Shown: positions 1 to 3,289 of the stretch, in pieces
Layout: every line of letters begins with the position of its first letter
Numbering within the stretch: the stretch's first letter is position 1
Assembly: GCA_016283295.1 (NCBI GenBank)
Contig: JAEEMQ010000002.1
Coordinates: 1-59,746, forward strand
Reading direction: 5' to 3'
DNA from: Alphaproteobacteria bacterium
Lineage (GTDB): Bacteria > Pseudomonadota > Alphaproteobacteria > RF32 > CAG-239
Length of the DNA stretch: 59,746 nt
Position numbers and translations under genes: made by a program
The notes under the pieces: generated by a model
The model's input: only the letters and a program-made list of their open reading frames with translations
Databases searched by the model: none
Told to the model about the DNA's origin: nothing

Positions 1-866
1 AACATGATGATTATAACTACAAACAGCTCTACGGCAATACTCCGCCACCGTCGATGCAAATACCGCCGGCGGCGCAACAATCGGAGAATAATACCGCAAA
101 TGCCACACTCGGCCAGCCGAGCAGTTATTTTCAGAATAATAACAATACATTTGGTTGGAGTAGTAATATCAATAGCTTTAGTGGTAACACAAACAACGTA
201 TTTAGCTCAAATATAAATTTCGGAGCAAATTCGAGCTACGGCACAACACCGGCCCCGCAAAATCAAACTTCTACACCATGGAATAATGATATTCAGGTGA
301 ATTCCTATATATTATCGGATAATCAAAGACAATTAGCTAATAGCCAGGCATTAAAATATGCTAATCTTATAAAGCAAAAAGCATATAAGAATATAGATAA
401 TGAAATTATCAAGGCTGATAATTCATTAACTTCTAATCAAAAAATGATTAGATTATTTTGGAATAACCTACAGACTCTTAATCCGGCATATCGTATAGGA
501 GAAACTTTCGGAACCTTAGAGTCTGCCAGACAAGAAATGAATAGTGTCAATAAAGACGGATATGATAATTATGCTCATCGTTATGGTATGTATACAAATG
601 CACAAGACGGTATAGATAAAGCAGTATATACTTTGGCAGCCGGCGGATTAAAAGAGCTTAAAGATGTATATGATAAAATTATCACTAATAAGCAATTTTG
701 GACTGAATCAAATAAAATTAAAAAGATTAATGCTACTTTGTCAGATAGCTGGAAGGATATCCAAAATAACTTTGAAGCAGTGAAAGCAGGGTTGCAAAAT
801 CCAAATATTGATGGTAGATTATGGTTAGAAGATTTTGACTATAAAAGTAACAAATGGAGAAAATGA
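1..866 (+). CDS. Polymorphic-toxin-like protein, 5'-truncated by the window edge. It has a Q/N/S/T/P-rich linker and an AT-rich C-terminal domain with a serum-amyloid-A-like core motif.
   Basis: Frame 3 is open from nt 3 (HDDYNYKQLYGNTPPPSMQIPP...), so the ORF-track Met at 54 is internal. Stop at 864-866. The C-terminal motif GYDNYAHRYGMYTNAQDG fits the G.D.Y.H..G.Y..A..G core of the SAA family. The 5' part is homologous at nucleotide level to 3092-3135. Confidence 0.6.
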   Translation, partial: HDDYNYKQLYGNTPPPSMQIPPAAQQSENNTANATLGQPSSYFQNNNNTFGWSSNINSFSGNTNNVFSSNINFGANSSYGTTPAPQNQTSTPWNNDIQVNSYILSDNQRQLANSQALKYANLIKQKAYKNIDNEIIKADNSLTSNQKMIRLFWNNLQTLNPAYRIGETFGTLESARQEMNSVNKDGYDNYAHRYGMYTNAQDGIDKAVYTLAAGGLKELKDVYDKIITNKQFWTESNKIKKINATLSDSWKDIQNNFEAVKAGLQNPNIDGRLWLEDFDYKSNKWRK

Positions 867-1063
867 TGCAATATAAGTCGTTAAAAGAACGGAGTGGCTT
901 ATCAAAATTTATAATTAAATGTTCCAAAATAATTTTAACCATGATATTGGCTTTTTTGTTGATAGGTGTCTTCTATTTAAGTTGGCAAGAAAAACAGGAT
1001 ATAAAAAAGTGTATACAACAAGGAAATACTTTTGATTATTGCTATGACCTACATAATTGGTAA
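854..1063 (+). CDS. Small single-pass membrane protein, putative cognate immunity protein
   Basis: 69-aa ORF overlapping the stop of the upstream toxin-like gene (GGAG at 856-859; ATGs at 854/863/866). It has a hydrophobic helix IILTMILAFLLIGVFYL. A hairpin (about 1099-1131) follows. The start codon is uncertain. Confidence 0.45.
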   Translation: MEKMMQYKSLKERSGLSKFIIKCSKIILTMILAFLLIGVFYLSWQEKQDIKKCIQQGNTFDYCYDLHNW

Positions 1064-1156
1064 GGTTAAAATGAAATCTGCTTAAGCCTAATGTCAACAA
1101 CCGAAAACCGTGCGTTTTATGACGTGCGGTTTTCGCATTTTAAAAGGAAAAATAAA

Positions 1157-2140
1157 ATGATAAATTTTAAAGATGAAGATGAGCCGCAAAGCGAAACGGT
1201 GCGGCAAACTTTGGAACGGGTGGCGCGAGAACTGGGAGTGTTCGGAACAACTCCGACCAACAACATTACCCACTCGCCGCAATCGCCGATGCAACATCCG
1301 ACAGCATTTGGCAGTTCGCCGAATTATTCTGCTACGGCGACGAACAATTGGCAGATTCAGCCGACAACAGCGGCGCCGCAAAACAGCAACACATTCGATA
1401 GCACTCCGCAATCGAACCAACCGACCGGTTTTACACCGTCGCAGGCACAAACGACGGAGCAAACTCCGGCGGAAGCAAATCAACCCGGACAGCCGTCTCC
1501 CGCCATGCAGGCGATTTATCGCTATTTAGCCAACACCTACGGTCAACAGAACCCGCAGATTACGGCACAGGTGCAAACATCGCCGGCGGTGCAACAGCCG
1601 ACAAATAATATGCAAACGCAGATTAGAATGCCGACCGGTTCCGAACAGCAAATAACTTTGCTAAGGCCGCAACGACCGACAACTTGGAGTAAGTTTAAGG
1701 ACTGGGCAGGAAACACCGGAGATGCAATGCAAGCCGGTGCCGTAGGCTATGCTTCCGGCACAACTTTGGGTAATTTTGACGAAGGAGTAGGTATAGCTAC
1801 GGCGGTGGCAACCTTAAACCCAAATAACTACACAATGGCTCGCAATGCCATTAGAGAATTGCAAAAAGATTTACAACAACGCCATCCGATTATTTACGGC
1901 GGAGCTGAATTTGCTGGAGCAATGTTTACTCCGATGCATTTGGCAAAAGGAGAAAATTTTAAACAGAAAGCGTTTAATGCTCTAACCGACACCTTAAATG
2001 CTTCCACCGGATATGCCGAAAACTGGAACGATTTTGGAACTAATCTGGCGGTAAATGGAATTGCTAATACGGCGGGCTTGACATTTGATGCAATACCTTT
2101 CTTAAGGACTTTAGATAGCAGTACAGGGAAAAAATGCTAA
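1157..2140 (+). CDS. Polymorphic-toxin-like protein: Q/P/T/N-rich disordered N-half and Gly/Ala-rich C-terminal domain of unknown function
   Basis: ATG at 1157 is preceded by AAAGGAAAA. The longer 1091 start would run through the upstream hairpin. There is no signal peptide. The segment NQPTGFTPS...QPSPAMQAIY has a nucleotide-level homologue at 3137-3240. Confidence 0.7.
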   Translation: MINFKDEDEPQSETVRQTLERVARELGVFGTTPTNNITHSPQSPMQHPTAFGSSPNYSATATNNWQIQPTTAAPQNSNTFDSTPQSNQPTGFTPSQAQTTEQTPAEANQPGQPSPAMQAIYRYLANTYGQQNPQITAQVQTSPAVQQPTNNMQTQIRMPTGSEQQITLLRPQRPTTWSKFKDWAGNTGDAMQAGAVGYASGTTLGNFDEGVGIATAVATLNPNNYTMARNAIRELQKDLQQRHPIIYGGAEFAGAMFTPMHLAKGENFKQKAFNALTDTLNASTGYAENWNDFGTNLAVNGIANTAGLTFDAIPFLRTLDSSTGKKC

Positions 2141-2266
2141 GTGGCGGTAAGAAGTTTATCAAACAGGGAACAAATTCTTTTGCTGACAAAATGAAAAATA
2201 CGTATTATAAAGAGGATGAAGAGGAAAAATACTACTAAAGAAAATAAACCTTGAAAGGAATAAGAT

Positions 2267-2587
2267 ATGGAAAAAGGGGTAATAAGAACAAAACTAATAG
2301 AGTTCATCGGTTATGCTATTATATTCGTTATCGCATTATTTGGTATAGAACTCTACGAATTGCATTTCATCGTACCTCTTTTTCCTATTCTTTTCCTGTT
2401 TGATTTGTGTCTTATCGTCGGATATCCGCTGTTTTTGCGATATGTTTTAAAAAAGAAATGGTTCGAGTGTTGCAAAGATAAATTGTTGCAAATAAAATAT
2501 ATATTATTACCGACATTGTTTTTAGAACTACTAGCGCTGTTTGTGGTTATAGTGTGCTATCCAAATGAAATATTACAAGCTTCGTAG
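2267..2587 (+). CDS. Small polytopic membrane protein, putative immunity protein (paralogue 1)
   Basis: RBS GAAAGGA before the ATG. 106 aa with about 3 hydrophobic helices. The conserved core FPILFLFDLCLIVGYPLFLRYVLKKKWFEC is shared with the next gene. The gene is AT-rich. Confidence 0.65.
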   Translation: MEKGVIRTKLIEFIGYAIIFVIALFGIELYELHFIVPLFPILFLFDLCLIVGYPLFLRYVLKKKWFECCKDKLLQIKYILLPTLFLELLALFVVIVCYPNEILQAS

Positions 2588-2615
2588 CCAATAGAACGTA
2601 ACAATGGAGCAGAAT

Positions 2616-2960
2616 ATGGAAAAAGAGGATAAAAAAGAAATTATAAAAAATAATATTTTTAAGTGTATCGATTTCATGCTCAACTTATTAATTGCATTTG
2701 GATTCTTTATAATAATTGTATTTCATATAACTGGTCCTTTTTTTCCTATTCTGTTTCTGTTTGATTTTTGCTTTTGGTTCGGACATCCGTTGTTTTTGCG
2801 ATATGTATTAAAAAAGAAGTGGTTTGAGTGCACAAAGGATTACTATCTTAAAATAAAATATATTTTGCTTCCGTGGTTTATAATGGAACTCGTAGTATTA
2901 TTATATTATCACAAAGCAACACTTTTTATCATAAAAATTGTTATGGAAAACAGCGACTAA
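2616..2960 (+). CDS. Small polytopic membrane protein, putative immunity protein (paralogue 2)
   Basis: GGAG lies 6 nt before the ATG at 2616 (the ORF-track start at 2604 is also possible). Core FPILFLFDFCFWFGHPLFLRYVLKKKWFEC shows a tandem duplicate of 2267-2587, visible at DNA level. Confidence 0.65.
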   Translation: MEKEDKKEIIKNNIFKCIDFMLNLLIAFGFFIIIVFHITGPFFPILFLFDFCFWFGHPLFLRYVLKKKWFECTKDYYLKIKYILLPWFIMELVVLLYYHKATLFIIKIVMENSD

Positions 2961-2990
2961 CAAAATGAAAAATACGCATTATAAGGAAAA

Positions 2991-3240
2991 TTGGCAAGAA
3001 CCTTTGCCGAGATGAAGGAAATTCCCGTGCCGAGTGAGAATTCGCCGAACCCGTTTGCCAATGAGATACAAAATTATTTATACGAACACGACGATTATAA
3101 CTACAAACAACTCTACGGCAATACTCCGCCACCGAACCAACCGGCCGGATTTACATCTTCGCCGCCACAACCGACGAATCAAACTGCCGCGGCAACGCCA
3201 AATTAAAACAGCCAGCCGTCGCCCGCCATGCAGGCGATTT
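2991..3240 (+). pseudogene. Truncated or frameshifted 5' remnant of a toxin-family gene
   Basis: The 71-aa ORF contains EHDDYNYKQLYGNTPPP (matching the window start) and NQPAGFTSSPPQ (matching 1426-1460). It stops at 3206. The homologous QPSPAMQAI segment continues in another frame to about 3240, where similarity ends in a T-run. Confidence 0.5.
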
Positions 3241-3289
3241 TTTTTTGTTTAAAAGCGGCAAAAAAGGCGATAAATCGCGTAAAAATCTG

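Follow-up and report, generated by a model that had tools for sequence, protein, structure and literature searches.

Polymorphic toxin systems, as far as those of Zhang et al. (2012) are described in PMC12419801 and PMC5576092, join a shared N-terminal part to variable toxin tips, each with an adjacent downstream immunity gene. Prophage-borne polymorphic toxins are already known, namely the MuF toxins of temperate phages (Jamet et al. 2017, PMC5576092) and Bxa (PMC11699363). Tips related to serum amyloid A (SAA) are known as well: prok-SAA is listed among the tips of polymorphic toxins, its immunity proteins being located in the membrane or periplasm (PMC12419801). We analysed a window of 59,746 bp, which is the entire contig JAEEMQ010000002.1 of an Alphaproteobacteria bacterium, and describe here its left end (1–3250), which an earlier note on this DNA had taken for a toxin–immunity locus. 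This region is probably a tandem polymorphic toxin–immunity array, with tips predicted to act on the cell envelope, parts that appear to be phage-derived and a location at the end of a prophage.

The open reading frames (ORFs) of 1–3250 were confirmed at the positions described earlier. Gene 1 (3–866, + strand; 287 codons seen) is 5′-truncated by the contig end. It comprises the end of an N-terminal module designated N3 (HDDYNYKQLYGNTPPP), an N/Q/S-rich linker and, from ~276, C-domain A. The ORF of a 69-aa single-pass membrane protein (854–1063, +), the candidate immunity gene for the SAA-like tip of gene 1, overlaps it by 13 nucleotides (nt). Gene 2 (1157–2140, +) encodes 327 aa as it stands and consists of module N1 (MINFKDEDEPQSETVRQTLERV), a Q/P/T-rich linker and, from ~1690, a domain designated domB; a start at 1091 was rejected since its homologs start at the position equal to the ATG at 1157. 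The candidate domB immunity genes follow: immB paralog 1 (2267–2587, +; 106 aa; E = 9e-43 with an immB hidden Markov model, HMM) and immB paralog 2 (2604–2960, +; 118 aa from the ATG at 2604, homologs being called from the ATG at 2616; E = 2e-55). The array closes with a decayed remnant (2991–3250, +), which holds the 3′ two-thirds of N3 and a linker, has an in-frame stop at 3204–3206 and ends with QPSPAMQAI and then a T-run.

The earlier note had stated that gene 1, gene 2 and the remnant share sequence at the DNA level, and four repeat pairs of 79–94% identity bear this out (1–50 and 3085–3134, 94%; 1403–1472 and 3123–3192, 81%; 1476–1528 and 3199–3251, 79%; 55–93 and 1572–1610, 79%). Its other statement, that the C-terminal domains of the two genes are unrelated, agrees with a direct comparison, which found no similarity. 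The overlap of the 69-aa ORF with gene 1 and its one hydrophobic helix (hydropathy scan) were likewise as described. The two proteins after gene 2 are indeed paralogs (50% identity, E = 2e-27), but a simple hydropathy scan found three hydrophobic helices in paralog 1 and two in paralog 2 instead of three in both. The claimed AT-richness of the cassettes relative to the N-terminal parts also holds. The G + C (GC) content was 0.306 in the gene 1 C-domain, 0.276 in the 69-aa gene and 0.32 and 0.27 in the immB genes, against 0.53 in the N-terminal part of gene 2 and a window mean of 0.464; the C-domain of gene 2 was mildly low (0.433). Sliding windows of 300 nt agreed, nine of the ten lowest in GC over the whole contig falling in 300–1000 or 2200–2800. 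The toxin–immunity reading itself stands in so far as a shared N-terminal part, unrelated C-domains and a small membrane partner for each gene are present, but it has to be qualified by a frameshift in gene 2 and by the position of the locus, by synteny, at a prophage end.

The family of the array is restricted to uncultured Alphaproteobacteria of the rumen and gut. Scanning one genome per species yielded 41 loci, all in metagenome-assembled genomes (MAGs) of rumen or human-gut Alphaproteobacteria, often several per genome and many of them 3′ fragments. At least five interchangeable N-modules occur in the family: N1 (MINFKDEDE..ETVRQTLERV), N2 (MSKAIGRIYGVG..), N3 (..GKRP..PGQSEWYYLDPRG..SPNP.ANEIQNYLYENDEYNYKQLYG.TPPP) and two related N4/5 forms, treated jointly as N45. 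N3 was found with at least seven tips, including domain A of gene 1, domB, a divergent domB tip, GH108 + PG_binding_3 (P0128), a pesticin-like lysozyme (P0127), Tlde1 (L017) and VgrG3-like_C (L033, E = 1.5e-30). N45 occurs with at least five, among them domB, Pfam SAA (L038, L023), Tlde1/YkuD (L024) and a pesticin-like tip (L054), and N1 with four (domB, domain A, GH108 in P0067 and one domain without assignment). All tips that match Pfam belong to cell-wall-directed families.

Modules are shuffled in this family, and tips are coupled to their partners. In a census with home-made HMMs for domB and immB (42 domB ORFs with a complete tip, 44 loci), one to five immB genes followed 41 of the 42 domB ORFs, and 16 of the 42 were orphan 3′ fragments with immB downstream. 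The divergent tip of P0108 has its own, different three-helix partner, and further downstream two immB genes stand behind a displaced 3′ fragment of domB. In L007, a full gene with a new tip and partner is followed just downstream by an orphan domB 3′ end and two immB genes (11504–12549), the junction being RHPYIYGGAE. SAA-like tips pair with small single-pass Cys-containing proteins (the window, L012 and L005), and GH108 and muramidase-like tips with signal-peptide proteins encoded convergently (L006, L012). The domB + immB block is 98–100% identical in the window and L003, while the N-terminal part and linker have diverged with indels. Swapping of C-terminus and immunity gene behind a shared N-terminal part was thus found in orthologous loci, as the earlier note had anticipated; its picture of swapped-in C-domains needs adjustment for gene 2, whose C-domain is the conserved core of a family of ~100 clusters in which the N-termini vary.

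The array resembles polymorphic toxin systems, as described in the sources named above, in its shared N-terminal part, variable toxin tip and adjacent downstream immunity gene, and its family also has orphan tip and immunity cassettes and the same tips behind different N-terminal parts. It differs from the systems described there in that its proteins are short (200–400 aa) and without repeats, a processing domain or a known secretion marker, and in that the N-terminal parts are shuffled small modules joined by low-complexity linkers.

Two further fragments of such loci were encountered. In L006, the gene past the GH108 toxin and its partner (11658–12041) opens with the usual N/Q linker, followed by a stretch like the beginning of domB (STWDNVKNFAQNA), after which it diverges; this suggests a further tip variant. 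The contig ends inside this gene. L012 (MT838567.1, 1–5120), labelled 'Bacteriophage sp.' and derived from human faeces, is a fragment of a toxin–immunity array: it holds an N45 + SAA-like gene with a stop in frame, a membrane protein of 71 aa, and two muramidase-like toxins accompanied by convergent signal-peptide proteins. Since its ORFs are those of such a fragment, the reading of MT838567 (5.1 kb, matches N45) as a microvirus with a pilot protein was rejected.

Gene 2, which had been taken as intact, is not so. A DNA alignment with the 80%-identical ortholog in L003 showed a 1-nt gap in an A-run near 2124–2130 (GGGAAAA-AATGC), and the homologs of gene 2 extend ~33 residues past its stop, ending in the near-invariant tail KKFIKQGINS.ADKMKNMYYKEDEDEEKYY. 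The consensus of the domB tail is KKFIKQG.NS.ADKMKN.YYKEDEEEKYY, in which K175, Q179, G180, N182, D186, K189 and Y193 are nearly invariant, and gene 2 matches positions 1–164 of the 198 of the domB HMM. Because of the 1-nt deletion, the tail is encoded one base back (2137–2237, +; −1 frame relative to gene 2), where LSGGKKFIKQGTNSFADKMKNTYYKEDEEEKYY and then a stop can be read directly. Programmed −1 frameshifting at GGG AAA AAA was rejected, since the tail of the homologs is in frame and this site departs from a canonical heptamer; the gap more likely reflects a sequencing error or a mutation. Since gene 2 is frameshifted, the two immB genes may be the working part. A second domB tail fragment (2957–2987, +; KMKNTHYKE; repeat D7, 31 nt, 90%) looks like a recombination scar, and the tail fragments at 2183–2213 and 2957–2987 flank the immB pair.

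Such damage could also mean that the locus is a decaying prophage remnant without current function, whose frameshifted and truncated phage leftovers merely look modular. Besides the frameshift, the remnant at 2991–3250 with its in-frame stop and the many short N3-only ORFs in metagenomes fit this view; the remnant matches positions 35–81 of the N3 HMM (E = 5e-25), contains repeats D2–D4 and lacks both ends, while the same place in L003 is occupied by a longer version of it. On the other hand, most homologs, like the gene 1 ortholog and the three small membrane genes, are undamaged and recur in conserved form in many samples and host animals, the coupling of tips and partners is near-perfect, and the catalytic-type residues of the gene 1 domain are invariant. 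We therefore regard decay as highly improbable and favour the toxin–immunity array.

The homologs of gene 2 fall into 116 clusters, all unnamed, and the source-named ones are from Alphaproteobacteria MAGs; domB is the conserved core of this family, and the N-termini are the variable part. Gene 2 matched nothing in Pfam, NCBIfam or PHROG or among PDB sequences, with the single sequence or with a profile. An exhaustive profile search of 1.84 billion representatives gave 106 domB matches, and the family is therefore narrow. In its alignment, a glycine zipper (G40xxxG44xxxG48) is nearly invariant. A Lipocone assignment of domB was rejected, its sole candidate Glu and Asp being 4 residues apart versus 16 in SAA, and its Foldseek matches (GntR regulators, ferritins and MATE transporters, with E above 2) were discarded as meaningless. 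In immB paralog 1, the motif is FPILFLFD.C...GYPLFLRYVLKKKWFEC and the DNA identity with L003 is 98–100%; close orthologs of immB paralog 2 follow the domB genes in L001 and L003. Both immB proteins and the 69-aa protein gave nothing in Pfam, NCBIfam and PHROG scans. E1-type pore-formers have three-helix membrane immunity proteins of ~110 aa.

The distant matches of domB were 570–865-aa proteins of the PHROG family phrog_5880. With hhalign, domB and phrog_5880 matched at 98.8% (E = 8.8e-17) over 116 columns, residues 27–142 of domB aligning to ~70–200 of the long proteins; homology did not extend across the full ~660 aa of phrog_5880, just these ~116 columns near the N-terminus aligning. Members of phrog_5880 include proteins of the Rhizobium phages RHph_N2, RHEph18 and RHph_Y25, the Sulfitobacter phages pCB2047-A and -C, and a Microcystis phage. 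In RHph_N2, the gene comes after the major head gene, a gene for a 532-aa protein, an N-acyltransferase gene and fibre genes. The internal virion protein genes of related podoviruses lie to the right of tubeA and tubeB (PMC10386132), and since the placement matches, the phrog_5880 gene of RHph_N2 is at the internal-virion-protein position. The first half of domB appears to descend from a podovirus protein encoded at this internal-virion (ejection) protein position. Together with the glycine zipper and the polytopic nature of the partner, this ancestry is the basis on which membrane entry or pore-forming activity is predicted for domB.

The surroundings of related loci point to the same phages. 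L001, L004 and L006 share the right-hand host genes of the window, of which the pyrimidine-nucleoside phosphorylase gene, the purine-nucleoside-phosphorylase-family gene, the cytidine deaminase gene and AsmA recur in L001 and L004, and a prophage lies to the left in all three. Its order is tail fibre, endolysin, TerL (Terminase_3), major head, tail protein and a 519-aa protein, and it ends with an acetyltransferase, a 222-aa virion structural protein (phrog_6121) and a toxin slot. This slot is occupied by domB in L001, by a pair of domB cassettes in L004 and by N3 + GH108 in L006. The position at the prophage end is observed in these syntenic loci; by the same synteny, the array of the window would lie within the variable block that closes a P22-like podovirus prophage on the right. 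In a related phage (L038, L045, L047), the array comes after the endolysin gene and a small hydrophobic ORF.

This context raises the question of whether the genes are ordinary phage parts, domB and lysozyme-tipped proteins being ejection proteins of the resident podovirus, which breach the wall and build the channel for the DNA, and the small inner-membrane proteins closing this channel in lysogens by SieA-like superinfection exclusion. In L001, L004, L006, L016, L019, L031 and L050, the slot follows the 519-aa protein, the acetyltransferase and the virion protein, which is the position of internal virion protein genes in related podoviruses (PMC10386132; RHph_N2). The homology of domB to phrog_5880 fits as well, as do the matches of N2 to the N-terminus of a virion protein and of N3 to that of a small MuF-motif protein (see below) and the peptidoglycan hydrolase tips, which are typical of virion-associated lysins. 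There is also a precedent in P22 SieA, which blocks gp16 and gp20 in lysogens (PMC10883804). The likeness to P22 gp16/gp20 with SieA and to phrog_5880 thus lies in the homologous first half of domB and in its pairing with a small prophage-encoded inner-membrane protein. However, domB proteins are one-third the length and occur in many copies per genome, also away from prophages, with orphan fragments and tandem immunity arrays. No phage structural gene was found within the fetched flanks of 33 of the 44 loci, and L005, L007, L009 and L010, whose flanks were scanned against Pfam, lie between housekeeping genes. Moreover, orphan 3′ fragments and up to five immB paralogs occur in the arrays, near-identical prophages hold unrelated tips in one slot (domB in L001, GH108 in L006), Tlde1 and SAA/Lipocone tips play no part in DNA entry, and the arrays placed after lysis genes in L038, L045 and L047 are in a cargo position. 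Ordinary phage function is accordingly an unlikely explanation; it may describe the origin of the system without being the whole story, and we retain the toxin–immunity array.

The N-terminal modules bear on this origin. An HMM of N2, built solely from N2 toxins, matched the N-terminal 47 residues of the virion protein of the prophages (nine prophage loci, E = 1e-14 to 1e-23; the two longer variants in L038 and L045, ~1e-9; pairwise BLASTP, E = 2e-6). The N3 profile matched small MuF-motif proteins of 116–138 aa (P0156, P0161, P0162 and P0166; E down to 7e-11), which have an N3-like start and the MuF core motif and match PF04233; P0162 also matched phrog_324 "head morphogenesis" (E = 3e-19). 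No link to a phage protein was found for N1, the module of gene 2, whose motif ETVRQTLERV loosely resembles a TonB box by eye. The statement that the N-terminal parts carry no recognisable trafficking domain therefore survives for Pfam but not beyond it, since N2 and N3 are homologous to N-termini of phage virion-type proteins. P0162 (L013, 10001–10417) lies in a mobile-element-like region with an HTH_3 repressor, a D12 methyltransferase, Fic, a UmuC-like protein and a PIF1 helicase, and no recognisable portal gene was found near it in L013.

MuF toxins likewise are prophage-encoded, with a virion protein part at the N-terminus and small downstream ORFs, and they raise the same question of phage delivery (PMC5576092). 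The array toxins differ in that they share just the ~65 aa preceding the MuF motif of the small MuF-like proteins; P0117 (the gene 1 ortholog), gene 1 and gene 2 have no MuF domain (PF04233, PF06152 or relatives). Their slot is not beside the portal gene but, in L001, L004 and L006, after the tail protein, the 519-aa protein, the acetyltransferase and the virion protein; most array loci are outside prophages, and the hosts are Alphaproteobacteria, not Firmicutes. While more than half of the MuF toxins carry a nuclease domain (PMC5576092), the Pfam-matching tips of the array family are all cell-wall-directed.

Gene 1 had 13 relatives, including the full-length 97% ortholog P0117 (368 aa), which shows that gene 1 starts with N3, the same module as in the remnant at 2991–3250. 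It had no match in Pfam, NCBIfam or PHROG or among PDB sequences in single-sequence and profile searches. The AlphaFold2 model was all-helical with a moderate predicted local distance difference test score (pLDDT 65.7), and the helices of the C-domain (70–91, 96–111, 113–136, 147–174 and 180–184) fit a four-helix core and a short fifth helix. In a Foldseek search of the PDB with this model, the top five matches were all serum amyloid A (SAA1 or SAA3; probability 0.92–0.97, target TM-score 0.56–0.60). The segment GYDNYAHRYGMY..DG of gene 1 resembles the SAA segment SDKYFHARGNY..RG, and hhalign against human SAA1 aligns it, weakly. Sister toxins with a Pfam SAA match above the curated cut-off are encoded in L038 (6886–7605, E = 6e-14) and L023 (8008–8778, E = 7e-12), and hhalign of the gene 1 domain against these SAA toxins of the same system (P = 3.8e-4, 59 columns) aligned the invariant H101, E127 and DSxxDxxxN. 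H101, E127 and D161 are invariant across 11 gene 1-domain sequences and were aligned to H, E and D of the SAA toxins, and the His-to-Glu spacing of +26 is that of human SAA1 by direct count. The 69-aa protein has a hydrophobic helix at residues 26–44 and a short Cys-containing tail, and resembles the 71-aa protein of L012, which likewise comes after an SAA-like toxin (pairwise E = 8e-5; 35% over 46 aa).

SAA has been placed in the Lipocone superfamily, with an active site formed by a His, Glu and Asp set (Burroughs et al. 2025, PMC12419801). The gene 1 domain resembles prok-SAA/Lipocone domains in its four-helix core with a short fifth helix, in keeping His (H2), Glu (H3) and Asp (H4) with SAA-like spacing, in its membrane-anchored partner, and in the bona fide Pfam SAA tips of sister genes of the system. 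It differs in lacking a Pfam SAA match, in an extra N-terminal helical region and a longer H3–H4 loop, and in the clade motif, sNxxGR being replaced by NNxEAV. Because this motif is not kept, we describe the C-domain of gene 1 as a divergent SAA-like Lipocone toxin tip, judged from sequence and model, and not as a certified member.

Alternatively, the toxins could be cargo effectors of a contact-dependent secretion system encoded elsewhere, such as a type VI secretion system (T6SS), with the N-modules as adaptor or loading signals and an incidental hitch-hiking on prophages. Pfam names both Tlde1 and VgrG3-like_C after T6SS effector families. Muramidase domains are frequent in T6SS effectors, which as a rule are small and accompanied by an immunity protein in the periplasm or membrane. 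Lipocone toxins have been reported with markers of type IV (T4SS), VI, VII and IX secretion systems and with MuF markers (PMC12419801). However, the scanned family members gave no match to PAAR, MIX, Rhs, LXG or VirD4-binding domains, and no T6SS or T4SS gene was found in the scanned window ORFs or in the Pfam-annotated neighbourhoods of L001–L015, the MAGs not having been searched genome-wide. Two of the N-modules have phage-protein homologs instead. Export by such a system is very unlikely and, together with decay, belongs to the less likely explanations. As a toxin–immunity array, the locus can also be compared with colicin, pyocin and pesticin bacteriocins, which have a modular N-terminal part with a C-terminal killing domain and an adjacent immunity gene and are released by lysis with no secretion system; pesticin-like lysozyme tips occur in the array family. 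A dedicated lysis gene is lacking in the array, though a phage endolysin gene adjoins some arrays, and Pfam and PDB sequence searches revealed no homology to the translocation, receptor or pore domains of colicins.

The toxicity, protection, site of action and delivery route that we infer for the array would be as follows. Each toxin combines an interchangeable N-module, an N/Q/P/T-rich low-complexity linker of variable length and a killing domain that would act on the envelope. TelC, the sole biochemically characterised Lipocone among polymorphic toxins, cleaves lipid II outside the cytoplasm (PMC12419801); by analogy, the gene 1 domain may cut head groups from lipid-linked wall precursors in the periplasm and be neutralised by the membrane-anchored 69-aa protein. 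The helical domB, with its glycine zipper, would insert into and permeabilise the inner membrane, where the three-helix immB proteins would block it. Recombination, within the linkers and at conserved motifs like RHPYIYGGAE, would swap the cassettes and leave behind orphan 3′ fragments and N-part remnants like that at 2991–3250. For delivery, the toxins could be packaged into virions via their phage-derived N-modules, as proposed for MuF toxins (PMC5576092), or be released at phage lysis and then be taken up in a colicin- or pesticin-like manner.

A number of observations weigh against this interpretation. The gene 2 copy of the window, being frameshifted, may be dead. The AlphaFold2 model of domB was poor (pLDDT 51.5), and AlphaFold2 and Foldseek revealed no recognisable toxin fold in it. 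The SAA assignment of gene 1 leans on weak single scores (hhalign P = 3.8e-4, no Pfam SAA match): Pfam SAA (PF00277) was not found for gene 1 at E up to 1 or for P0117 at E up to 0.1, the Foldseek matches to SAA had E values of just 0.4–1, and in H4 the sNxxGR motif of the SAA-Wnt clade reads DSWKDIQNNFEAV in gene 1, in which the Asn at D+4 is kept and GR is absent. Pfam and NCBIfam searches found no recognised trafficking or secretion domain, and no hydrophobic signal was found, in gene 1, gene 2 and P0117. Among the scanned window ORFs, there was no secretion-system gene except one T2SSE-type ATPase gene. The prophage upstream of the window is inferred from synteny and is not on the contig itself. 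A scan of IMG/VR for domB found no relative, and in a phage collection, tblastn gave no match for N3 and one unverified 5-kb faecal scaffold for N45, domB not having been queried.

A more far-reaching scenario, which is tentative and on balance doubtful, is that temperate podoviruses of gut and rumen Alphaproteobacteria turned their own ejection proteins into interchangeable inter-bacterial toxins. Loading into the capsid would depend on the N-terminal virion pieces, and each particle would then deliver its toxins by injection into the envelope of whatever cell it adsorbs to. Immunity would double as superinfection exclusion, cassettes would have spread to chromosomal islands, and domB would be a new membrane-permeabilising fold with its origin in a protein of the ejection conduit.

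Polymorphic toxins, prophage-borne ones and SAA-type tips are already known; new here are this family of Alphaproteobacteria and the modules that it uses, domB and immB, for which Pfam and NCBIfam have no match, and the apparently traceable descent of toxin parts from podovirus virion proteins. The family stems from Alphaproteobacteria that are known here solely as MAGs, and it adds one predicted toxin domain (domB), one predicted immunity family (immB) and a set of N-modules, all outside Pfam and NCBIfam, while the gene 1 tip is a testable addition to the recently proposed Lipocone superfamily. Polymorphic toxins shape the coexistence of strains in dense communities such as those of the rumen and gut. 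The trail from virion proteins to toxins is unusually clear and bears on the question raised by MuF toxins, namely whether phage particles can deliver protein weapons, and on the related question of whether toxin immunity and superinfection exclusion are two faces of one mechanism.

A palindromic hairpin (1102–1135; 15-bp stem, 4-nt loop, then GCATTTT) lies just 5′ of the ribosome-binding site of gene 2 and is terminator-like (−24.3 kcal/mol, z = −3.9; no chance matches in 100 shuffles). It is conserved at the junction 5′ of the first toxin gene in L001 (9948–9979), L004 (9948–9979) and L006 (9946–9977) and is aligned in L003; a pattern search also placed it upstream of the domB gene in L022 (9758–9789) and after immB in L001 (11678–11709). 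At cassette boundaries, the hairpin and T-run may act as a terminator or mark sites of recombination or regulation.

Between the toxin array and the pyrimidine-nucleoside phosphorylase gene, six tandem paralogous leucine-rich-repeat proteins of 172–445 aa are encoded (3349–8929, +), with a head reading YNLYDLPDGFVIKGD, 22-aa repeats (GAPQKVGG.F.C..N.LTSLE) and a basic AGFAAFKK tail. Since L001 has one such copy at the same position and L004 none, their copy number varies with the prophage-end block. These proteins are part of the same variable block and are not toxins.

The scanned ORFs in the rest of the window were mostly housekeeping genes, among which the gene of the T2SSE-family (type II/IV secretion) ATPase (319 aa; 17576–18535, − strand) stands alone. 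At the right end of the contig (52368–59399), three large proteins with lysozyme or peptidase domains are encoded, one of 812 aa with a peptidase/endolysin-like PHROG match, one of 567 aa with Phage_lysozyme and a GDSL lipase, and one of 343 aa with Phage_lysozyme, and then a 517-aa protein without a match. This region may be another effector or phage-derived block.

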